A program made the translations under genes and the position numbers. Below are positions 7,214 through 63,950 of a DNA stretch of 64,000 bases, piece after piece. The notes below the pieces were generated by a model. That model made no database searches, was not told the origin of the DNA, and saw nothing but the letters and a program-made list of their open reading frames with translations. This DNA is from Chloroflexota bacterium (GTDB taxonomy: Bacteria; Chloroflexota; UBA11872; VXOZ01): positions 160,001 through 224,000 of the forward strand of contig OY760183.1 of assembly GCA_963663275.1 (NCBI GenBank), read 5' to 3'. Each line of letters starts with the position of its first letter. The first letter of the stretch is position 1.

Positions 7214-7656
7214 CCGTCGCCCGCCTTTCGTGCCAGGTGTGGCCGCGTGTCGCGCCACGCGCAGCCGCCTCTCGCGCCTGGTGTGGCCGCCCCTTGTGCC
7301 AGGTGCGTCCGTGTCCCGTGCCAGGTGTCGCCGCGTCCCGCGCCCTTCACCCCACTATACCGCAAGTACCGGCGGGTCGCATGGCCTTGCGGCCAATTGC
7401 CGGAAGCGCGCTCAGGCTCCCTCTCCCAGGGGGCGACCGTCCGGTGTAGGGGCACGACATGTCGTGCCCCTACACCGGACGGCGCCAATGGCCGGCCGCT
7501 CCCGCGCGTTCGATACGGGCGGCGTCCCTGTGCTACCATTTAGACATCAGGCGCGCCCGGCCGCGGGGGCGCGGCCTACCGGCAGGTAAGGAATCATGCG
7601 GGTACTTTTGGCGCGCCGGCGCGCGGCGCGAACGGCGTCAGAAAGGACGTGGAGAG

Positions 7657-52755: not shown

Positions 52756-54675
52756 TCAACTCTTACGGTCCGTAAGCCAGATCGGGCTTGCCCAGGCAAT
52801 CTGCCGATTGCCCTGCGACACACGAAGATAGTAGAAGACGAAGGAACGATCATGGGCAAACGTGGGTGCAAGGGCCAGCGCAGCCAGAGATTCGGCGTCC
52901 GTCCATTCACCCTCCCAGACGTCGTTGCCCGGATTTGCTGAAAACACCACTTCGTTATTCCGGAGCAACTCAACCGAGTCAATGCGATAGGTACCCGCCG
53001 CGCGCATGGCGAATCGTCTGGGTCCGTACTGAGCAAGGTCTACGTCCAGGTCGGTACCCATCGGCGCGTCGTTCATGGTGAAATCCAGCAGAATGCGATC
53101 GCCGGTAGTTGCGTAGCAGCGGCGCTCGTTGAGCGCCTGCCAAATGGCATCCCGTGTCAACTCGCGCGCCACGACGCAGGCGAGGCCGTTGCCGTCGTCC
53201 ACGAAGAAACTGCCCTGGTTTGCCAGGCCGTGATGGGAGTCCGTGCCGCCGATGAAACCAAGCCGGTGCCCCATGGCCAGCGCCCGCTGCACGCTGTACG
53301 GCCCGCCGGTCTCCGAGATGCCCCAGCTTGAGCAAATCTCCACCAAGCGCTGGTGCTCGTCGTTGCGGTAGTCCCAGTTGGTGACATTGCCGAATTTTGT
53401 GTGATGCGGGATGGTCAGAGCCTCGCGCCCTGCCAGGATCTTCCAAAGCTCATCCGGCGTCATGCCGCCGGGCCCGAATGAACGGATGAATTCGGCGCTG
53501 TCGCCGCGGTGGTAGATGTTCTTGTGGCCGTTGGGATTGCCCGTGCCCCACTCGTGGCTGACCAGCGTGACGAACCGGTGGGGATCATTGAAAGCGTTGG
53601 ACGTATCCACCACCTCCTGCCAGACGTCATCGACGATCTCGAAGCGCATCTTATAGTGATTGGCCGGCGCGCAGAAGTCCAGGCCCGCCACGTCGCGCCC
53701 CCACTGAAAGAACTCTTCGGTCGTGCCAGTTCCCTGGCTGTGCCACATCTGGCTGTGCATCTCGCCAAAGTAGACGCACCGGTCCGGCAGGAACCCCGCG
53801 CCGATAGGATTGCTCTTGCCGGCGATGCCGGTGGCAGGGTCTACCACCGTGACCCGGTGGATGCCTTCGCTGGTGGCCTTTGCTTGCATGGAGGCGCCGG
53901 TGGCGTTTGCCTTCTGGTCAAGGGCAACGCCTCCCGGTATGTCGAGCCCTTCAGTGACGATGGTATTGGCATAGCCCGCATAGCCGGTCGCCGCATTGTA
54001 GCTATAGCCGTCCACCGGCAGCACGCGAATGGAGCACTCCTCACCCGGCTGGACGACGGCAGGCGCGAACACCTTGAAGCGCTCGGCATGGGCGCCCACC
54101 ACGCGCACGGTTGGGTGCGTGGCGGCGCGCCGGTACGCGCCGTCGCCCGCGCGGTCCACGCCAACCGTAAAGATCGCCACCTGGGCATAGCGCTGGGCCT
54201 GCACCAGATTGCCGTCGGGCGGTCCCAGGACGATGCGGATTGCGTCTCCAGGCTCCAGCTCGCCCTCCTGCACGACCACGTCTACCAGGTCCATGTGCCG
54301 CCCCCATGAGGCCGCGTGGGCCAGCTTCACGTCGAGGCGCGAACACGCTACATCAGTGAATGCCCCATATCCCACCTTGCGAATTTGACCCTTGTCGCGG
54401 CTGCCGACGGTCTTCAGCCCGCGCGGATAGGGATTCCCCAGGTGGCACTCCCACGTGCTCGGCACTTCCATGGTGACGTGGGCTCCCTTTGGGAGCGTGA
54501 TGTCCGGCCCCAGCGTGAGCGTCGCAGTAAACGTGTGCCCACTGGCGGCTTGGACTTGATCCGGCGACATTTCACCGTGGATATCCGCCGGCCGCTCGAA
54601 CTGCCACGAGCGGTTGATGGGAAACCAATCGGAGGTATTGTCAAAGAGGCGCGGCTGCGAGAGTTCCTCTGACAT
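52756..54675 (-). CDS. DUF3604 / PHP-like metallohydrolase
   Basis: YFGEMHSQ, HEW, GHKN, IPHH, GFIGGTDSHHG, RRCYATTG and AWASPIW motifs. Confidence 0.78.
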   Translation of the reverse strand: MSEELSQPRLFDNTSDWFPINRSWQFERPADIHGEMSPDQVQAASGHTFTATLTLGPDITLPKGAHVTMEVPSTWECHLGNPYPRGLKTVGSRDKGQIRKVGYGAFTDVACSRLDVKLAHAASWGRHMDLVDVVVQEGELEPGDAIRIVLGPPDGNLVQAQRYAQVAIFTVGVDRAGDGAYRRAATHPTVRVVGAHAERFKVFAPAVVQPGEECSIRVLPVDGYSYNAATGYAGYANTIVTEGLDIPGGVALDQKANATGASMQAKATSEGIHRVTVVDPATGIAGKSNPIGAGFLPDRCVYFGEMHSQMWHSQGTGTTEEFFQWGRDVAGLDFCAPANHYKMRFEIVDDVWQEVVDTSNAFNDPHRFVTLVSHEWGTGNPNGHKNIYHRGDSAEFIRSFGPGGMTPDELWKILAGREALTIPHHTKFGNVTNWDYRNDEHQRLVEICSSWGISETGGPYSVQRALAMGHRLGFIGGTDSHHGLANQGSFFVDDGNGLACVVARELTRDAIWQALNERRCYATTGDRILLDFTMNDAPMGTDLDVDLAQYGPRRFAMRAAGTYRIDSVELLRNNEVVFSANPGNDVWEGEWTDAESLAALALAPTFAHDRSFVFYYLRVSQGNRQIAWASPIWLTDRKS

Positions 54676-55348: not shown

Positions 55349-58300
55349 ATGGATGAAACTGAAGACACCGCCCAACTCAGCGACCTGGCCGCCGGCATCC
55401 TGCGGCGGCACGACAACCGCGAGCCCGAGGCCAACATCACCAGCGCCGTGCGCCGATTCCTCACCGACACCGGCCTGGTAAGCGAGGCAGACATCCAGGA
55501 GGAGAATCCGCCCACACAAGGTTCGCGCCAGGCCGTAGACCTGCGCGCGCTGGACACCTTCATCGAGTTCAAGCGCCGCGTCGGCCCCGGCGGCATCACG
55601 CCCAACCCCGATTACGTGCGCCAACTCGACGACTACCTGTCGCAGTCCGCGGCCGCGGGCAAGAGCGTGCGCCTGGGCATCCTGACCGACGGTAAGCACT
55701 GGCTGCTGCGCTGGCCCGGCGCCGGGGCGGTGCGCACCGCGCGCCCGTACGCCTTCATCCTCGAATCTCCTGAAAGCGGCGCCGCTCTTTACACCTGGCT
55801 GCGGGACGAGGCCTTGGCCGCCACCCAGCAGACCCAACCCGACCGGCAGAGCATCACGGCGCGTTTCGGGCCGGACAGCCTGCTGTACCAGCGCGACATC
55901 GACACCCTGCGGCAGCTTTACCAGTCTACCGCCGCCAGCGAGACCATCGCCGTCAAGCGCCGCCTCTGGCACAACCTGCTCATGGCGGCCCTGGGCGAGA
56001 TTGCCCGCGGCCGGCAGCAGATGGACGACCTCTTCGTCCGCCACACCTATCTCAGCATGACCATCGGCATGGTGGTGCAGGCCTCGTTTGGCATTGACAT
56101 TGCCGAAGTCGCGGCCAGCGATCCCGCCGCGCTGCTGCACGGCCGCCGCTTCCACAACGCCACCGGCCTGCACGGCATCGTGGAGTCGGACTTCTTTGCC
56201 TGGCCGGCCGAGGTGGAGGGCGGGCTGGCGCTGGTCAAGACCCTGGCGCGGCGCGTGGCGCGGTTCGATTGGACCCAGGCCCCGGCCGACGTGGGCGCGA
56301 TTCTCTACGAAACCGTCATTCCGCCCGACGAGCGCCGCCAACTGGGCGAATACTACACGCCGGACTGGCTGGCGCGGGTGATGGTGCGCGAGTTGGTCGC
56401 CGAACCGCTTGACCAACGGGTGCTGGATCCGGCCTGCGGTTCCGGCACCTTCATCGTGGAAGCCGTGGCGCATTTTTTGGAAGCGGCACGCGCGGCAAAC
56501 CTCGCGCCTGACATAGTTATGGAAAAACTACGGCTGGCGGTGACCGGCATCGACGTGCATCCGGTGGCGGTGCACCTGGCCCGCGCCGCGTGGACGCTGG
56601 CGGCGCGCCCGGCCATCATGGCCGCCGCCCGCGCCGGCTACAGCAATCCCATCTCCGTGCCGGTCTACCTGGGCGACGCGCTGCAACTGCGCTTCCACAC
56701 CGGCGACATGATTGCTGCCAATGAGGTGCGCATCGAGGTTGAAGACGAACAGAACACGACCCTGATCTTCCCGACCTCTCTGGTGGCCCGCGCCGACACC
56801 TTCGACCCGCTGCTGAGCGACGTGGCCGACGCCACCGAACGCGGCGCCGACCCCCGCGTGGCCCTGGACGACCACGCCGTCACCGACCCCTACGAGCGCG
56901 AAACCCTGCGACACACCATCGCCGCAATGCAACGCCTCCACGCCGCCGGCCGCGACCACATCTGGGCCTACTACACCCGCAACCTCGTCCGCCCCGTCGT
57001 CCTCAGCCGCGAAAAAGTGCACGTAATCATCGGCAACCCACCGTGGCTGAACTACAACCAAACTGTGAGCACCCTGCGCACCGCATTGGAAGACCTGAGC
57101 AAGGACCGCTACGGCATCTGGACCGGCGGCCGCTACGCCACCCACCAGGACGTGGCCGGCCTCTTCTTCACCCGCTGCGTTGACCTCTACCTACGAGACG
57201 GCGGCGTGATCGGCATGGTGTTGCCCCACAGCGCGCTGCAAACGGGACAGTACACCAAGTGGCGCACCGGCCTCTGGCGCTCCAAACCACAGGGCCGGGG
57301 CCGCAACCGCACGCCTACGCTCACCTTGTCGGTGGAGTTCGACTACAAGCGGGCCTGGGACTTGGAACGGCTGGAACCCAATACCTTCTTCCCGATACCT
57401 GCCTGTGTTGTCTTTGCGCAGAGCACCGGCGATAGCGGAGTGGCGAACGCCCTAAAGGGAACCGTCGAGCGGTGGCGCGGCAAGACCGGGGCAGACGACA
57501 ACCACAGGGAGCCTATGCCCATCACCGACACATCAGATATTGGCGATTCTCATTACGCCAAGCACGCAAAACAAGGAGCGGTGATTGTACCTCGCTGCCT
57601 GTTCTTCGTGCACGAGGGCGAAAACCCGGCCATCATCCAGGCCGGCCAAACGGTCATTGTTAACCCACGACGAGGAACTTATGACAAGGAGCCGTGGCGC
57701 GGCCTTGACCTTTCACTAATCGCTGGTCAGGCCATTGAGCGTCAGCATGTCTTTGACGTGCACTTGGGAGAGACTGTTGTACCCTACGCTACGCTTGACG
57801 CTCTCAAGGCGGCGCTACCGCTAAAACGGGATGACACCACTCCGCCTGCCGACCCGAACGGAGTGGGCGGTATCCGCCTCGGTGGACTGGATAGACGGAT
57901 GCGCGAACGCTGGCAGACCGCTAGTTCTTTGTGGGAAGAGAACAAAGCGGCAGCCAACGAACTGGACTTGCTGGGTCAGTTAGACTATTACGGCAAACTG
58001 TCTGCACAACTCGAATGGCGGCAGAATCTCTCTACCAGACCCGTTCGCGTAGTCTATAATTCCTCGGGCACGCCGACAGCGGCATTGCTCTGCGACGATG
58101 ACGCTTTGGTTGATTACACGCTGTTTTGGATTGCCTGTAACAATGTCCAAGAAGCCTACTACCTGCTAGCAATCATCAACAGCGATGCCCTGTACGAGGC
58201 CGTAACCCCGTTGATGGCTAAAGGCCAGTTCGGCGCACGCCATCTACAGAAGCACCTCTGGAAACTCCCCATCCTCGCATTCGACCCATCCGTCCCCCTC

Positions 58301-58486
58301 CACGCCGCCATAGCCGACGCCGGCCAAACTGCCGCCACCGCCGCCGCCCACCAACTCGAGCAACTCCGCGCTACCCGCCCCCGACTCACCGTAACCATAG
58401 CCCGTCGCGAACTCCGCAAATGGCTCCGCGCGTCTACCGAAGGCCAAGCCGTTGAGGAAGTGGTCAAGAAGCTATTGAACGGCTAG
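55349..58486 (+). CDS. Type IIG-like fused restriction endonuclease / N6-adenine methyltransferase
   Basis: N-terminal D..IEFK nuclease-like motif and GILTDG; GEYYTP, VLDPACGSGTF (motif I) and IIGNPPW (motif IV). Confidence 0.88.
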   Translation: MDETEDTAQLSDLAAGILRRHDNREPEANITSAVRRFLTDTGLVSEADIQEENPPTQGSRQAVDLRALDTFIEFKRRVGPGGITPNPDYVRQLDDYLSQSAAAGKSVRLGILTDGKHWLLRWPGAGAVRTARPYAFILESPESGAALYTWLRDEALAATQQTQPDRQSITARFGPDSLLYQRDIDTLRQLYQSTAASETIAVKRRLWHNLLMAALGEIARGRQQMDDLFVRHTYLSMTIGMVVQASFGIDIAEVAASDPAALLHGRRFHNATGLHGIVESDFFAWPAEVEGGLALVKTLARRVARFDWTQAPADVGAILYETVIPPDERRQLGEYYTPDWLARVMVRELVAEPLDQRVLDPACGSGTFIVEAVAHFLEAARAANLAPDIVMEKLRLAVTGIDVHPVAVHLARAAWTLAARPAIMAAARAGYSNPISVPVYLGDALQLRFHTGDMIAANEVRIEVEDEQNTTLIFPTSLVARADTFDPLLSDVADATERGADPRVALDDHAVTDPYERETLRHTIAAMQRLHAAGRDHIWAYYTRNLVRPVVLSREKVHVIIGNPPWLNYNQTVSTLRTALEDLSKDRYGIWTGGRYATHQDVAGLFFTRCVDLYLRDGGVIGMVLPHSALQTGQYTKWRTGLWRSKPQGRGRNRTPTLTLSVEFDYKRAWDLERLEPNTFFPIPACVVFAQSTGDSGVANALKGTVERWRGKTGADDNHREPMPITDTSDIGDSHYAKHAKQGAVIVPRCLFFVHEGENPAIIQAGQTVIVNPRRGTYDKEPWRGLDLSLIAGQAIERQHVFDVHLGETVVPYATLDALKAALPLKRDDTTPPADPNGVGGIRLGGLDRRMRERWQTASSLWEENKAAANELDLLGQLDYYGKLSAQLEWRQNLSTRPVRVVYNSSGTPTAALLCDDDALVDYTLFWIACNNVQEAYYLLAIINSDALYEAVTPLMAKGQFGARHLQKHLWKLPILAFDPSVPLHAAIADAGQTAATAAAHQLEQLRATRPRLTVTIARRELRKWLRASTEGQAVEEVVKKLLNG

Positions 58487-58606
58487 CGTAAGCCATTGCC
58501 ACTTGCAACCCCCAATGCGAGCCTGACGGCAGACCAGTGACAAGACCCGCATCTTGTTGGTACATTGCCAGATAATCTGACGGAATTGCTCGAAGGGCGG
58601 CGAGTG

Positions 58607-59041
58607 ATGAATCTTCCATACCCAGAGCCAACGAGCGCCACTGCGACCAAGAAGATGCGCTCCAACCGTCGGGTCGATACGAAACCCGAAGTTGCGCTCA
58701 GGTCATTGCTGCACCGGCGAGGGCTGCGCTTCAGGAAAGATTACCCCATTCGCCTACCGAACGGTCGGACAGTACACCCGGACATCGTCTTCACCAGGAA
58801 GAAACTCGCCATATTCGTGGACGGCTGCTTCTGGCACTCATGCCCCGAACACGGCACGACGCCAAAGACCAACCAGGACTACTGGACTCCCAAGCTGCGG
58901 CAGAATGTCGAGAGGGACAAGAAAACAGACGACGGCTTGCGGACTAATGGATGGCAGGTCGTACGTATATGGGAACACACAGGTTCAGAAGATGCCATAG
59001 CCACGATCCAAGGGGCTCTGGCACAATCTTGCGTCACTTAA
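58607..59041 (+). CDS. vsr: Very short patch repair endonuclease
   Basis: DTKPEVALR, PDIVF, FVDGCFWHSCP and GWQVVRIWE motifs. Confidence 0.93.
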   Translation: MNLPYPEPTSATATKKMRSNRRVDTKPEVALRSLLHRRGLRFRKDYPIRLPNGRTVHPDIVFTRKKLAIFVDGCFWHSCPEHGTTPKTNQDYWTPKLRQNVERDKKTDDGLRTNGWQVVRIWEHTGSEDAIATIQGALAQSCVT

Positions 59042-61046
59042 AGTTTGGATTCATGGCTTTGATGTCTTCTATTGAAATGCTGTTAATTAGGCGGAATACT
59101 CTTCCTGCTTCTGTCTCTCGATCTAGGTAGTCCTCATACGCTTGTAGCGCATTATGGATCAATTCCTCATACCTAATCACTCGAGCCCTTGCTCCTTCAA
59201 GCGTTCTAGCTGACACTTCCCTTCCGCCGGGACTCGACCAATCTGACAATGGCTTGCCGATCAAGCAAATGAATTCTAGGGGTTCGTTAGACCTGCCATG
59301 AGACTCTAATACTTTGGAAACTCCAGTTCGGTACTTGAGGATCTGTTGCACCAATCCACCAGTTTCAAGCGGGCGACTTGCACGCTTCAGTTCGATTATC
59401 ACGTGTTTGTTTCCTGTTGTCGTATAACGAATGTCCAGTCTTGCGAGTCTTTGCTCTTCGGTAAGCGACTGGTAAACCTCGTCGAGCTTCCTAGCGATCT
59501 GGGTTTCCATTCGCGTAGTGTGAGTCGCACGTTCCCAGGATGGGTCCAGCAGCCATAGGTGTTTGTACAGGTGATCCTGAATCACTCTTTCCTTGGCGTC
59601 ATCGTCAATCAGGTCTGTCAGCTTATCTATAACTTCCAGCCGATCTTTGCTGATTTGGTAGTATGCGCTCGCCTCCAAATCATCAAGTTGACTGAAGACG
59701 TCACCGAGTGAACCTAAGTTTTCCGCCGATAGTTGCTCTATGCGATGTAAGAGATGCCGGAACTTCAAACTTTCAAATGCCAGTATTCCGCTGACGAACA
59801 GTTGTCGTTTTTGGCTAACGTCGTCAATTGGCAGTTGGTTGAATTTGCCGAACAATTGCTCTGCTGACCTCTTGTGATCAGGGCTGAGGCTTTCGTACCA
59901 TTCCTTGATTTGAGGAATTGTAACGGCAACTTTCCGTCCCTGATTGTTTCTCAGAACAGTCCAATCGCTTTGTATGGCTTTCAACTCGGACTGGAGTTTC
60001 GATCTCAGAGCCTGGTACCTCGGATCTTCCTCTATGATCCGCTGTCTGCTGGTGGTAGCGATGTCATCTGCATGATCTAGATCGAGGAAGTCAGCGTGGA
60101 TTTCCCCAATGATGTACTTGCTGTAAATTCCGCCTTCGCCAAACTCCTCCAGGATGTCTTCCTGGGCTAACTTCCCTCGTACCATTACTACAATCTTGTT
60201 TATGCTCTCGCCGGTGTCCGAATCTTTCAGTTGACCAGCTTCTTTGACCGTTCCAATCCAGCCGTCGATCGCAAACTTGGCTTCGCCTACTTCGACTTCC
60301 CCTGCGCGTGGCTTTTGGTGCTCCAAATTACTTGCAAGGGTACGAGCCTCTTCTCCACGTGCGCCGAATGTCCACATGTACTGAAGCTTGTCGTAGTAAT
60401 CACGATCCTCAATAGTAATCGGAGCACTGTCCAATTCGATTTCAAAGTGATGCTTAGCTCCTATGATGCTGAATCTGCGAGCGAGCCTGCGTCTCAAAGC
60501 TGAACTGGACCGATGAAGCTGGCGCTTCATATCGGTAAGGAATATCTTGGTACCTTTCGCAATCTCGACTCTCGCAGGATCGACAGGGTCAGGCGAGTAT
60601 TCATTGTCTTCGCTATCCGTAATAGCTTTCTCAATGTCGTCGAGGTTCATTCTGAAACCATGTCGCTTGCCCTGCTTCACACTGTGGACTTCGACGGTCC
60701 TTGCGATAGAGAATAGGGACAGCTTGCCAATCCCCTTTCGTCCCATCACTGGCCTTTGAAACCTTGGCGACCTGGCCCCGTCTTTCTGTTTGCGACGCTC
60801 GTAACCGACCGTCAGGTACCTGTCGTTCGCGTCGTCCACGCTCATGCCGTGTCCGTCGTCCTGGATCACGATCCTGTCGCCCCGAGGGTCGATCTCAATG
60901 ATCACGTGCTCGGCATCAGCATCCCACGCGTTGGCAACTACCTCTGAAAGGACTGCGGGCACGTTGCTGTAGAGCCCTAACCCCAAGTGCTTCAGCACAT
61001 TCAGATCCAGCGTCATCCTATATTTGTGTTCGCTGTCGTCAGTCAT
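59034..61046 (-). CDS. GHKL/MORC-type ATPase with a C-terminal restriction-nuclease-like domain
   Basis: EVVANAWDA, DDGHGM and GRKGIGKLS motifs; C-terminal RLDI..IIELKR; lower GC; ATGA-type overlap region with the C5 MTase gene. Confidence 0.85.
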   Translation of the reverse strand: MTDDSEHKYRMTLDLNVLKHLGLGLYSNVPAVLSEVVANAWDADAEHVIIEIDPRGDRIVIQDDGHGMSVDDANDRYLTVGYERRKQKDGARSPRFQRPVMGRKGIGKLSLFSIARTVEVHSVKQGKRHGFRMNLDDIEKAITDSEDNEYSPDPVDPARVEIAKGTKIFLTDMKRQLHRSSSALRRRLARRFSIIGAKHHFEIELDSAPITIEDRDYYDKLQYMWTFGARGEEARTLASNLEHQKPRAGEVEVGEAKFAIDGWIGTVKEAGQLKDSDTGESINKIVVMVRGKLAQEDILEEFGEGGIYSKYIIGEIHADFLDLDHADDIATTSRQRIIEEDPRYQALRSKLQSELKAIQSDWTVLRNNQGRKVAVTIPQIKEWYESLSPDHKRSAEQLFGKFNQLPIDDVSQKRQLFVSGILAFESLKFRHLLHRIEQLSAENLGSLGDVFSQLDDLEASAYYQISKDRLEVIDKLTDLIDDDAKERVIQDHLYKHLWLLDPSWERATHTTRMETQIARKLDEVYQSLTEEQRLARLDIRYTTTGNKHVIIELKRASRPLETGGLVQQILKYRTGVSKVLESHGRSNEPLEFICLIGKPLSDWSSPGGREVSARTLEGARARVIRYEELIHNALQAYEDYLDRETEAGRVFRLINSISIEDIKAMNPNFK

Positions 61047-62130
61047 GAAATCTCTCTAGGTGCGCGACTATGGACCTGCCAACCGCCTCGCCAAGCTTCA
61101 CGGGAACCGCATTGCCGATCAGCCGCGCCACTGAGGTGATCTGCACGGATTCTCCTGTTGGGACGAACGAGTAATCTCTTGGAAACGTCTGTAGCAGAGC
61201 GCCCTCGCGCAAGGATATAGCGCGGTCCTGGACCGGGTGGCCAAATCGCCCGTTGCCGTAGCCGTGGAACTGGGTGGTGATGGTTGGAGCAGGCCGGTCC
61301 CACTCCATGCGACCGTAGACGCTGGGATAGGTCTTGCCGGATTGCTTGACATGGCAGTCGGCGCGGAGGTCTTGACCGGATGCTGAATCCGCCCAATCCC
61401 GCCAGGTTCCGCCGGGCTTGGAATGCTGGACGCGCGCCAAGTTCGCAGCGGATAGTCCACTTGACTTGTGCAATGGGTCTAATGGGGACGCCTGCCCTGC
61501 TTCGATGTGCGGCAAATGCTGGATCGCATCCCTTACGGTCACGGAGTCACTATCGGCATGTGTCGGCGGGATCATTTGGATAGGGCCGAGCCTGGAGGCT
61601 AGCAACACCAAGCGCCTTCTCGATTGGGGTACACCGTAGTCGGCACAGTGAACTACAGAATAGTCGCAATAGTAGCCAGCGTTGCGCAAAGCGGCTTGGA
61701 ATTCATCGAAGACGGCATATCCCCGCAAGCGTGGGACATTCTCCATGGTGACGATCTCCGGCTGTAGCGCGGTGACCATTTCGCCAAACTTGGGTAGCAA
61801 TTGCCACTGGGCATCGCGTTCGAATCTGCGATTGGAGTAAGACGAAAACGGCTGACAGGGAGCGCAGCCCGCGAGAATCCTGATGACATTCGCCGGAAAC
61901 AGCGACTCGACGAATCGCGGCGATAGCGCGGCCACATCTTTCTCATAGAATGCAGCTTCGACATTTGCTTCGAACGGGTGTTTGCAAGCGGGGTCGATGT
62001 CGATCCCGGCGCGGATCGTGATGCCAGCGTGCTTCATGCCGTAGGAAAGCCCACCGGCGCCGCAAAAGAGGTCTACGGCAACTGGCTGTGAAGTTGGCTG
62101 CGTCTTGTCGATGGGGGCTTCAAGCCACAT
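61039..62130 (-). CDS. dcm: DNA (cytosine-5) methyltransferase
   Basis: DLFCGAGG, APCQPFS, MENVP, YGVPQSRRR and IGNAVP motifs; start 62130 or 62178. Confidence 0.93.
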   Translation of the reverse strand: MWLEAPIDKTQPTSQPVAVDLFCGAGGLSYGMKHAGITIRAGIDIDPACKHPFEANVEAAFYEKDVAALSPRFVESLFPANVIRILAGCAPCQPFSSYSNRRFERDAQWQLLPKFGEMVTALQPEIVTMENVPRLRGYAVFDEFQAALRNAGYYCDYSVVHCADYGVPQSRRRLVLLASRLGPIQMIPPTHADSDSVTVRDAIQHLPHIEAGQASPLDPLHKSSGLSAANLARVQHSKPGGTWRDWADSASGQDLRADCHVKQSGKTYPSVYGRMEWDRPAPTITTQFHGYGNGRFGHPVQDRAISLREGALLQTFPRDYSFVPTGESVQITSVARLIGNAVPVKLGEAVGRSIVAHLERFHD

Positions 62131-62237
62131 ATCTCCGCCGCCAGTTGCTACTTGCGGTCTTGGAACTGCCTTCACCATAGCCGACTCTGTTCACTTTGAG
62201 CAACTTTGGCTTGGAATCCCCACCTGGCGCCGCGCGG

Positions 62238-62822
62238 GTGAAGGACGTCCTGTGGGGGATGCAGGTGGGGGTGACGGTGTTGGCGGTGGTTCTGGGCGCG
62301 ATCTTTGCCGCCTACAAGTGGCAGGTCTTCCGCGAATCCGAGCCGCACCTGACGATCACCCACGAGGTATCCCACCGGCCCGTCGGCGCAAGCTACGTCC
62401 ACATCGCCGTGACCGCGGTTCTGCACAATAGTTCAAAGGTCAAAATGGAATTTCGCGAAGCGTTTTTTCTCATGCAGAAGATCTCCCCGGTGTCGGACGA
62501 GGAAATTGAAGCACTGTACGCTGAGTACGCTCAGGCATTTGAGCAAGGGGAGTACAAGAACATGCAGTGGGATACGCTTGACAAGATTCCCATCACCTGG
62601 GATGAAGACGTAGTGATCGTGGAACCGGGTGAAATGCATCAAGAAACGTGCGAGTTCATCGTGCCGAAGGACGTTAAGTCGGCTATCATATACTCATATT
62701 TCTATAACTCTCGGGTGCCGCAGGTTCCTCAAGGATGGGGCGCGACTACAGTCCACGACATAGCGGCCCGTGATTGCGGGAGTGTCGATGTGGAAGGAGA
62801 TTGCAATGCCAGCCAAGAATGA
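62238..62822 (+). CDS. Hypothetical protein with an N-terminal TM anchor and a predicted beta-rich domain
   Basis: Hydrophobic VGVTVLAVVLGAIFAAY followed by alternating beta-strand patterns; start uncertain (62196/62238/62259). Confidence 0.7.
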   Translation: MKDVLWGMQVGVTVLAVVLGAIFAAYKWQVFRESEPHLTITHEVSHRPVGASYVHIAVTAVLHNSSKVKMEFREAFFLMQKISPVSDEEIEALYAEYAQAFEQGEYKNMQWDTLDKIPITWDEDVVIVEPGEMHQETCEFIVPKDVKSAIIYSYFYNSRVPQVPQGWGATTVHDIAARDCGSVDVEGDCNASQE

Positions 62823-62964
62823 GAAGAAAAGAGGAGATGTCGCCATAAAAGGAGGCGGGCCGAGGCAGAGTCCTCCCAAACGTGAGCCCCCGGTCAAACC
62901 ACCAGGAGCGAGCAAGCCTAAACCCGCGTCCAATCCACCGCAGCAATCCAAGCCGGCCAAGTGA
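62806..62964 (+). CDS. Pro/Lys-rich small peptide 1 (52 aa)
   Basis: AAGGAG RBS; MPAKNEKKRGDVAIKGGGPRQSPPKREPPVKPPGASKPKPASNPPQQSKPAK. Confidence 0.7.
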   Translation: MPAKNEKKRGDVAIKGGGPRQSPPKREPPVKPPGASKPKPASNPPQQSKPAK

Positions 62965-63000
62965 GCGCCGCCGGGCGGCACGGCGGTTGAACCTTGATCG

Positions 63001-63111
63001 ATGCCGTTGGCGTCCAGGCAGGTAGTCGCCTACTACAATTCGAGAGTGCCGCAAGTTCCCCAGGGTTGGGGCGCGACCGCGATTCACGACATAGCTGACC
63101 ATGGTCAATGA
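63001..63111 (+). pseudogene. Orphan fragment or mini-ORF homologous to the C-terminus of the 62238 gene
   Basis: MPLASRQVVAYYNSRVPQVPQGWGATAIHDIADHGQ versus FYNSRVPQVPQGWGATTVHDIA; differences mostly synonymous. Confidence 0.65.
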
Positions 63112-63135
63112 GCAGTAGTGTAAAGGAGGGTTACA

Positions 63136-63279
63136 ATGCCGGCAAGTTCCAAGGTGCAAAGAGAAAGTGTCGGGCCAAAAGGCGGCGGGCCCAAGAAGAG
63201 GCCGCCCAAAGTTCCTTCCAAGAAACCACCGGGAGCAACTCCGCCTAAGCCTCCCCAATCGTCGAAGCCATCCAAGTGA
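63136..63279 (+). CDS. Pro/Lys-rich small peptide 2 (47 aa)
   Basis: AAGGAGG RBS; MPASSKVQRESVGPKGGGPKKRPPKVPSKKPPGATPPKPPQSSKPSK. Confidence 0.7.
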   Translation: MPASSKVQRESVGPKGGGPKKRPPKVPSKKPPGATPPKPPQSSKPSK

Positions 63280-63335
63280 ACGCCAATCGAAGAGGCTGCT
63301 GGAACGAAGGACTCCAGCCGTTCCAATTGGAGAGC

Positions 63336-63701
63336 ATGATGCCGGAGGAAAGAGAAGCCAGCAAGAGCAGGCCGGTCAGGAGTGGAACGGGCCCAAGGGT
63401 TCGACTTGAACAGTTACCGCCTGAGAAACGCATAGCGGGCAAGAGCGGCACGGGTCCGAAAGAGAATCCGCCGCTGGTGAAGACTTCGCGCAAGCCGCCG
63501 GGCGGATTGGGGTTGACCAAAGCCTCGATAAGGTCGACTATGCCAGCCGACGAAGAGTGCACCAATAGAGTGGTCATCAAGAAGGGAACGGGGCCAAAGC
63601 AGAGGCCCCCTATGACTGCTTCCTCAGGTAAACCCCCGGGCGGCCCGCCTAAACCCAAACCCTCATCTCCACCTCACAAGCAACCGCAATCATCCAATTG
63701 A
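63336..63701 (+). CDS. Pro/Lys-rich peptide 3 with three GTGP(R/K) motifs
   Basis: GGAG RBS; SGTGPR, SGTGPK and KGTGPK; internal MPA start at 63540 matches the other peptides. Confidence 0.6.
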   Translation: MMPEEREASKSRPVRSGTGPRVRLEQLPPEKRIAGKSGTGPKENPPLVKTSRKPPGGLGLTKASIRSTMPADEECTNRVVIKKGTGPKQRPPMTASSGKPPGGPPKPKPSSPPHKQPQSSN

Positions 63702-63791
63702 AGGCAGGCAAGCCGCCGAAGGCCGGGGCGCGACGACCCTCCATGCTATTGTGGAAATGTAACCGCACAGTATGCGCTCATGGAGGTTGCA

Positions 63792-63950
63792 ATGCCAGAC
63801 AACGAGAAAGGCAATGAGACACAGGTCGTCATTAAAGGGACAGGACCAAGAACCGCGCCTCCCAAAGCCGATTCTTCCGGGAAACCCCCGCGAGCGAGCA
63901 GGCCTAAACCCGCGTCCAATCCACCGCAGCAATCCAAGCCGGCTAAGTGA
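63792..63950 (+). CDS. Pro/Lys-rich small peptide 4 (52 aa)
   Basis: GGAGG RBS; MPDNEKGNETQVVIKGTGPRTAPPKADSSGKPPRASRPKPASNPPQQSKPAK. Confidence 0.7.
   Translation: MPDNEKGNETQVVIKGTGPRTAPPKADSSGKPPRASRPKPASNPPQQSKPAK

Follow-up and report, generated by a model that had tools for sequence, protein, structure and literature searches.

A putative stack of displaced two-gene modules at a Chloroflexota locus: a truncated membrane-protein gene, its 3′ stumps and an array of proline-rich peptide genes

The peptide array and its two-gene module

The 64,000-nucleotide stretch of a Chloroflexota bacterium genome analysed here (assembly GCA_963663275.1, contig OY760183.1, positions 160,001 to 224,000; referred to as the window) carries, close to its right end, an array in which a gene for a small membrane protein (gene 1, also the main gene) is followed by several genes for small proline-rich peptides (gene 2, or pep), some of them preceded by partial copies of the 3′ end of gene 1 (Table 1). 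Each of these partial copies, referred to as anchors or stumps, appears to be the 3′ remnant of a formerly complete gene 1, and the locus as a whole is, with a probability of roughly 70%, a stack in which copies of a single two-gene module have been displaced. The array extends to 63950 and is followed by a PhyH-family gene on the opposite strand.

The open reading frame (ORF) of gene 1 runs from a GTG codon at 62238 (or a TTG at 62196) to a stop codon at 62820-62822, corresponding to 194 or 208 amino acids, and pep1 overlaps its stop end by 17 nt. The peptides comprise five units in four ORFs (pep1, pep2, pep3a plus pep3b, and pep4), all basic and proline-rich, with the common core G-x-G-P-[KR]-x-x-P-P-K … K-P-P-G, in which KPPG is changed to KPPR in pep4. 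No stump was detected upstream of pep3. All three recognisable gene 1 copies of this genome are 5′-truncated, and every peptide ORF is open. A scan for promoters and terminators gave no promoter-like element and three terminator-like ones, all on the minus strand and not above shuffled sequences.

Table 1. Features of the array and of its left neighbourhood (window coordinates; HMM, hidden Markov model; RM, restriction-modification; TM, transmembrane; Ig, immunoglobulin)
Feature	Coordinates	Strand	Description
Gene 1, 5′-truncated	62224..62822	+	one TM helix and an acidic Ig-like beta-sandwich; three-allele mosaic
pep1	62806..62964	+	52 aa, basic, Pro-rich, present partner; peptide HMM score 32.3
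Stump 1	63031..63111	+	last 26 codons and stop of a putatively displaced G009-type gene 1
pep2	63136..63279	+	47 aa orphan peptide gene, G009 primary type; omega 0.26
pep3	63336..63701	+	121 aa ORF, in-frame fusion of two cassettes; HMM units 26.8 and 33.9
pep3a	63336-63539	+	"B-type" (GTGPKENPPLVKTSRKPPGG); core alignable to orphan pepB in G009 and G011
pep3b	63540-63701	+	own ATG at 63540; like the L018/L036 peptide type
Stump 2	63700..63759	+	about 19 decayed codons and stop of a putatively displaced G011-type gene 1
pep4	63792..63950	+	52 aa orphan peptide gene, G011 primary type; omega 0.24 vs L012
RM cassette, HgiDII-type	58565..62178		Pfam; NCBIfam NF050001, 811 bits; PADLOC REase_II
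vsr	58565-59041	+	in RM cassette
BbrUII/HgiDII-family endonuclease	59034-61046	-	NF050001, 811 bits
C5 cytosine methylase (divergent)	61039-62178	-	in RM cassette
Type IIG RM gene (N6_Mtase/Eco57I)	55349..58486	+	left border of the syntenic locus, conserved in G009 and G011

The same pairing was followed through 81 loci, namely the window and 80 loci from other Chloroflexota/Dehalococcoidia genomes. The module consists of gene 1 (about 215 aa, with a TM hairpin and an acidic sandwich) and gene 2 (about 50 aa, basic, proline-rich and probably disordered; core consensus (V/I)xxG[TS][GA]P[KR]xxPPK…[KR]PPG). When peptide units and stumps were accepted in HMM scans only above the best wrong-strand match, which served as control, at least one peptide unit was found at 78 of the 81 loci, always downstream and on the strand of gene 1: one unit in 48 loci, two in 22, three in 7 and five in the window. 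The other three loci hold divergent basic, proline-containing ORFs in the same place, as judged by eye. The peptide start lies between -37 and +41 nt from the gene 1 stop in most loci, and the peptide also occurs at five more loci in other genomes, including a different family (G082).

The peptide ORFs are real coding genes, since four orthologous pairs gave an omega (ratio of non-synonymous to synonymous change) of 0.17-0.26, indicative of purifying selection; for pep1, the values against its G015 and G003 orthologues were 0.17-0.22. Two other views of these ORFs were considered and rejected: that they are chance frames in GC-rich DNA, in view of the omega values, the conserved ribosome-binding site and the presence of the peptide at every locus, and that the normal product is a read-through or frameshift fusion of the peptide to gene 1, in view of the spacing and relative frame, which vary between loci. 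The net charges of the two partners are opposite, with a median of -13 for the soluble domain (-20 to -7, n=63) and +8 for the peptides (+2 to +12, n=51). The peptides carry neither a signal peptide nor a hydrophobic segment and match no family in Pfam (E≤0.01), NCBIfam or PADLOC (both E≤0.1; the same cut-offs apply below). A profile of them matched 124 called proteins, none informatively named; "hypothetical protein" was the single source name among the rows listed. Complex prediction for pep1 and the soluble domain, each supplied as an alignment, scored 0.00, which is evidence for neither side.

Homologues of gene 1 numbered 294 at E≤1e-3 in one search, and a profile search of 1.84 billion representatives returned 1647 (50%-identity clusters) at E≤1e-3 and 975 at E≤1e-10. 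These relatives, about 215 aa long, begin with two hydrophobic helices, and the family HMM matches the window gene over only positions 31-213 of 214. A DNA search found the family in 18 of 41 relatives' genomes (by family, 13/16 in f1 and 4/6 in f5), and several genomes carry the module at more than one place, in multiple copies. The gene 1 product matches no entry of Pfam, NCBIfam or PADLOC, P0007 likewise has no Pfam match, and no fused Pfam domain was found in 15 longer distant relatives. Among distant or long relatives, the C-terminal extension of P0260 (307 aa) ends in a proline-rich basic tail with the features of fused partners, and P0215 and P0235 have acidic Ser/Thr-rich tails instead. 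From the positive N-termini of the relatives and the positive-inside rule, the hairpin would be N-in/C-in, with a cytoplasmic sandwich.

The fold check proposed in the original prediction for 62238-62822 yielded an AlphaFold2 model (predicted local distance difference test score 88.7) of a long helix followed by a beta-sandwich with one inserted helix, and the fold proved uninformative on function: the matches are generic Ig-like (ApaG, the TMEM106B luminal domain, GH2 Ig domains, transglutaminase barrels), and the best Z of about 12 is tied across many unrelated entries. A profile search of solved structures gave a single chance-level match (E=0.074). In an Atlas search, the gene 1 product met hypothetical-protein clusters only, and a pep4 match of 0.75 fell under the level of a lead. 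A literature search, outside which most subscription-journal papers lie, returned no description of the gene 1 family.

Putatively displaced gene 1 ends and the syntenic genomes

The original prediction stated that the C-terminal segment of gene 1 recurs downstream with mostly third-position changes, that a more decayed copy follows, and that the divergence is enriched at synonymous sites, all of which is borne out. A direct repeat (D2) of 71 nt relates 62702-62772 to 63033-63103 with 76% identity, a third copy of 36 nt (72%) lies at 63719-63754, and the in-frame match pairs FYNSRVPQVPQGWGATTVHDIA (from 62700) with YYNSRVPQVPQGWGATAIHDIA (from 63031). Over the 22-codon core, in which the end of gene 1 is set against 63034-63099, 16 of the 66 nt differ, distributed as 3, 1 and 12 over the three codon positions (third-position binomial p=8e-4). 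Counted by the Nei-Gojobori method, 13.0 differences fall on 16.2 synonymous sites and 3.0 on 49.8 non-synonymous sites (Fisher p=1.6e-8), the former being near saturation and the latter nearly unchanged. Among the matches listed in a tblastn search of the 3.53-Mb genome, gene 1 has one full copy plus the stump 1 fragment (E=8.8e-8).

The more decayed copy, stump 2 (63700-63759), ends in …QAAEGRGATTLHAIVEM and a stop codon, with the conserved GW changed to GR and D to A. Taken alone it is borderline, with a C-terminal HMM score of 10.8 against 10.7 for the best wrong-strand control. Its identity is nevertheless secure because of a 241-nt, 75.5% blastn alignment (E=3e-41) to the tail and peptide of a sister genome, which spans the last ~17 codons of the intact G011 homologue through its peptide gene. 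Behind each anchor lie a ribosome-binding site of the GGAG type and then a peptide ORF, as had been claimed, with the count of units now corrected to the five given above.

Evidence for displacement comes from two same-genus genomes, G009 and G011 (the G011 locus being L012), whose version of the locus is syntenic with that of the window. In all three, the left flank is formed by the type IIG RM gene (77-80% nucleotide identity), and the right flank is likewise common to them at 82-91%, with PhyH, two GFO/IDH/MocA genes, a sulfatase-like gene (assigned by eye from its sequence) and DegT. The order in G009 is intact gene 1, a pep2-like gene, a stump of about 60 codons and pepB, and in G011 it is intact gene 1, a pep4-like gene, a stump and pepB. 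The expected variation of cassette number and order at this site among relatives is therefore present within a single genus. Stump 1 with pep2 aligns to the intact tail and peptide of G009 at 82% over 251 nt, just as stump 2 with pep4 aligns to those of G011. Moreover, of 78 nt in stump 1, 8 differ from the intact G009 gene's tail and 21 from the tail of the main gene beside it, which supports the proposal that the cassettes stem from diverged alleles and not from a recent local duplication.

The main gene itself is a mosaic. In a sliding comparison, 62230-62349 is G009-like (85-90%), 62320-62439 is G011-like (87-93%), and 62440-62739 is G003/G015-like (82-92%). For pep1, as for the main gene's 3′ part, the closest relatives are in G003 and G015, at a non-syntenic locus; the main-gene tail plus pep1 is 79% identical to the G003 copy, which lies in another genomic context. 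The 5′ part of the main gene and stump 1 are thus both of the resident G009 type with a foreign piece between them, which is the pattern expected from the integration of an allele into the resident gene.

A different fate of stumps and peptides is seen when G009 and G011 are compared directly. Their orthologous stump has the same left boundary in both and differs at 43 of 168 nt, spread as 17, 12 and 14 over the codon positions, with 9 gap columns and a frameshift, in flanking DNA that is 79% identical, whereas the core of the orphan pepB differs at 11 of 90 positions, 7 of them third positions. From this even spread in the stump and the third-position bias in pepB, the stumps drift and the peptide cores are somewhat constrained. 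Gene 1 is broken beside an intact peptide ORF in the window, L045, L074, L089/G004, L105/G006 and L007. In L105 (G006:C1, ~1902493-1902691), an internal deletion joins HMM positions ~82 and ~184, and the peptide gene behind it is intact.

Downstream units that open with a main-gene 3′ fragment followed by a partner gene were found in the window, G009, G011/L012 and L027. Only five of the 30 multi-unit loci show an extra gene 1 piece or copy above the control: the window, L012 and L027 have a 3′ stump with its peptide, L010 has another copy that an insertion sequence has split, and L049 has a whole additional gene, its two complete modules standing in tandem. In L010 (5737-7387), a 1.1-kb insertion with a DDE transposase gene interrupts the second gene 1 copy, whose peptide gene (7424-7567) is intact. 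Multiplication of peptide genes also occurs with no stump present, as in L022 (two adjacent genes) and L056 (three units within one ORF). Stump lengths range from about 17 to about 60 codons.

Parts of the window stretch occur in sequencing runs labelled sponge metagenome. Contigs of run X1 bridge methylase-gene 1-pep1, pep1-stump 1-pep2 and pep3-stump 2-pep4 with zero differences, and run X2, of that label, covers pep2-pep3 with 11 differences in 586 nt. Word depths of X1 along L081:453-3252 (window 61132-63931) were 60 for methylase-gene 1-pep1, 18 for pep1-stump 1-pep2 and 4.8 for pep3-pep4; these differences may stem from strains that carry different arrays or from mobile DNA that is shared, contig depth being no proof of strain heterogeneity.

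To the left of the array, homology to the intact gene 1 of G009 ends near 62224, upstream of which lies the start region of the methylase gene, so that the window gene 1 is without its start codon and first TM helix. Judging from this junction, the arrival of the RM cassette seems to have removed the 5′ end of gene 1. Where the window has this cassette, G009 has a TPR-HEPN gene and G011 a pair of DUF5677 genes, and given these differing contents the site flanked by the type IIG RM gene and the module is a hot spot for the exchange of defence cargo. In a survey of 24 loci covering the three nearest ORFs per side, defence-type neighbours (RM, HEPN, Abi, PIN, GmrSD, Uma2, HNH) were present at 12-13. 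In the window, G009, G011, L010, L049 and L056, the module has a type IIG RM gene directly or almost directly upstream; the association may recur beyond shared ancestry.

Past the end of the window, on the minus strand, two adjacent paralogous genes (window-equivalent 65915-67204 and 67401-68441) each match both copies in G009 and G011 at 82-91% nucleotide identity, and the counterparts of this pair in L003 and L005 are GFO/IDH/MocA oxidoreductases by Pfam. A gene at 52772-54675, upstream of the type IIG RM gene, resembles L093:6940-8843 (81%) and lies in G011 between PhyH and the peptide array, a shift of position that amounts to a local island rearrangement; in L012 it has a DUF3604 match.

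Proposed displacement and function, and rival explanations

The history that fits these data best would run as follows. Briefly, diverged alleles of the module would recombine into the resident gene 1, and each such event would swap the middle and 3′ part of gene 1, bring in a new peptide gene and shift the old 3′ stump and the old peptide gene downstream. Repeated events together with 5′ deletions would then give the order pep1 / stump-pep2 / pep3a-pep3b / stump-pep4. The synonymous-biased divergence of stump 1 would date from the time when both alleles worked in different lineages, and after displacement the stump would decay neutrally while the peptide cores stayed better conserved. The last step would be the deletion of the 5′ end of the current gene 1 by the HgiDII-type RM cassette. 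The anchors are probably by-products of displacement and deletion, which could still serve as substrates for recombination.

As for what the module does, a toxin-antidote-like conflict or defence pair, or an abortive-infection one, is the leading guess, a tentative one. It draws on the strict linkage of the two genes, purifying selection on the peptide, the opposite charges, the variable and often defence-type neighbourhoods, the multiple copies per genome and the repeated breakage of gene 1 beside surviving peptide genes. In this view the acidic membrane-tethered protein would be bound and held in check by the basic peptide; peptide genes would outlive their partners because of this restraint, and surplus orphan antidotes would be tolerated or even useful. 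That the gene 1 product would inhibit growth and the peptide rescue it is read only from the asymmetric decay of the two genes, and the opposite assignment, in which the peptide is the effector and the gene 1 product the immunity protein, fits the decay pattern less well. An unlikely extension of the antidote idea holds that the peptide, short, unstable, basic and rich in polyproline, reads out through its supply the translation capacity of the cell. A phage that shuts down or overloads translation would then free the acidic sandwich to act on the membrane, and the orphan peptides would be antidotes retained to counter alleles that circulate in the population. Two PP motifs of the peptide, xPPK and KPPG, are near-invariant and belong to classes that need elongation factor P for efficient translation. 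If this were true, the locus would evolve like a polymorphic toxin/immunity locus yet act inside the cell.

Several observations weigh against displacement or against the conflict role attached to it. Cassettes of the B-type and pep4-type follow each other in opposite orders in the window genome (G000) and in G011, so that a single simple stacking history does not fit and independent events are needed. For the right-hand junction at 62965-63030 no source was found, so that any mechanism of integration is hypothetical. Peptide genes are short (150 versus 650 nt) and thus likelier to survive by size alone, which weakens the antidote argument. The cytoplasmic placement of the sandwich is only predicted, from the positive-inside rule applied to sequences, and its generic Ig-like fold is without a toxin signature. 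Finally, the family is patchy: a profile search found it in 8 genomes out of 301 sampled evenly across the phylum, and a scan of viral contigs found no relative.

The original prediction compared the shared anchor to a device that lets recombination swap the downstream unit. Spelled out, this is a programmed cassette switch, in which the 3′ anchor is kept so that recombination can join the main gene to one of the silent units downstream and thereby change the paired peptide, much as orphan Rhs/CdiA modules and silent pilS copies switch by such recombination. A main gene assembled from three alleles, stumps still homologous to it and arrays that differ among same-genus genomes all suit this idea, and reserve cassettes are one of the two models given for cdi orphans in PMC4927057. 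It is nonetheless rather doubtful, since a maintained anchor sits badly with the even drift and frameshift of the G009/G011 stump, with the loss of conserved residues in stump 2 and with the unequal stump lengths. No contig in four runs joins the main gene directly to a stump, a weak point given that contigs drop rare variants. As the stumps drift, 25 of the 30 multi-unit loci lack an extra gene 1 piece above control, and peptides multiply by themselves (L022, L056), the anchors are probably not kept for swapping, and this part of the earlier comparison is not supported. A tandem duplication of the whole module that took place in situ long ago, with long divergence of the paralogues under selection and lineage-specific deletion, would dispense with foreign DNA altogether. 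Long-lived paralogues would also produce synonymous-biased divergence, full tandem modules do exist (L049), and several genomes have the module at two places. What makes this origin quite unlikely is the lack of collinearity between G000 (…B-type, 3b, pep4) and G011 (pep4-type, B-type), the breakpoints inside the main gene, and the non-syntenic position of the closest relatives of pep1 and the main-gene 3′ part (G003, G015).

The peptides might instead be precursors of secreted or modified products, such as a bacteriocin, an array of ribosomally synthesised and post-translationally modified peptides or something akin to proline-rich antimicrobials, with gene 1 as immunity or export factor. Short, variable peptide genes in multiple tandem copies next to a gene for a PhyH-family oxygenase would be in keeping with this, as would a glycine-rich motif (KGGGP/KGTGP) that may loosely resemble double-glycine leaders. 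Within the surveyed neighbourhoods, however, the module has no conserved companion gene for a maturation enzyme, a protease or a peptide exporter; the ABC-2 genes near L001, L008, L018 and L036 represent one syntenic context, and PhyH is adjacent only in the three syntenic genomes. Conservation extends over the whole core and not over a leader, the peptides lack the export features noted above, and toxic peptides would make the loss of gene 1 alongside four retained peptide genes costly, all of which renders such a precursor role very unlikely. Displacement of diverged module alleles thus remains the preferred account of the array.

Comparison with known systems

By fold, the gene 1 product recalls LEA_2-like proteins, TMEM106B and ApaG (DUF525), in which a TM helix is likewise followed by a seven-to-eight-stranded beta-sandwich (ApaG 1xq4, Foldseek E=8.5e-5; TMEM106B 8b7d, Z 10.6, root-mean-square deviation 3.1 Å over 115 residues; GH2 Ig domains, Z about 12). 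The likeness is confined to the fold, at 5-12% identity, is tied with unrelated Ig-like domains and has no Pfam counterpart: neither the window protein nor P0007 nor any of the 15 distant relatives matches the ApaG/DUF525, LEA_2 or TMEM106 profiles. Two-TM effectors of the cyclic oligonucleotide-based antiphage signalling system (CBASS) and the pyrimidine cyclase system for antiphage resistance (Pycsar) are also small, combine a TM hairpin at the N-terminus with a beta-rich C-terminal domain, and also reside in defence islands. The PADLOC "2TM effector" match is insignificant (E=0.038, TM region only), and no cyclase or other signal-generating gene was found in the 24 neighbourhoods. No Cap15 chain is among the fold matches listed, lists which do not rule Cap15 out. 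Unlike CBASS effectors, the protein has a proline-rich peptide as its partner.

In genetic behaviour the module resembles type II toxin-antitoxin and abortive-infection pairs with orphan antitoxins, which similarly consist of two small, tightly coupled genes in defence-rich variable neighbourhoods, occur in several copies per genome, often show a broken larger partner beside a persisting small one, and encode proteins of opposite charge. In contrast to those pairs, the module contains no known toxin or antitoxin domain (Pfam, PADLOC, NCBIfam) and its peptide has no DNA-binding fold; moreover, the larger gene comes first and the small partner is basic instead of acidic. Pfam, NCBIfam and PADLOC thus cover neither a large gene family nor the small-protein partner strictly linked to it, and frequent restriction, HEPN, Abi and toxin-antitoxin neighbours make the family a candidate conflict system in uncultured Chloroflexota.

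An architectural parallel is offered by the orphan modules of contact-dependent growth inhibition (CDI) and Rhs loci, to which the original prediction had likened the array. For orphan cdiA-CT/cdiI units, PMC4927057 sets out a "fossil record" model in which new alleles push old 3′ ends downstream, and the units there are also in the same orientation, each made of a displaced main-gene 3′ end and a small partner gene. Arrays likewise vary between strains, and the main gene is mosaic. The resemblance holds for this architecture and not for the idea of gene 1 as a polymorphic toxin, as a CDI/Rhs main gene encodes a giant secreted toxin, whereas here the product is a membrane protein of 194 aa (about 215 aa in relatives) with a TM hairpin and an Ig-like sandwich. 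In CDI/Rhs proteins a variable toxin domain lies behind a VENN or PxxxxDPxGL boundary, whereas here the stump is the conserved tail and the variable unit is a separate peptide gene; there is neither a linked secretion system nor any sequence relationship. Taken together, the architecture appears to be that of the displaced-orphan arrays of polymorphic toxin loci, newly seen in an unrelated, uncharacterised gene pair. Rows of displaced 3′ ends with partner genes, as known from CDI/Rhs loci, would then also form around a small, intracellular-looking gene pair, and the intermediate states kept in sister genomes form a natural series for the build-up and decay of such arrays.

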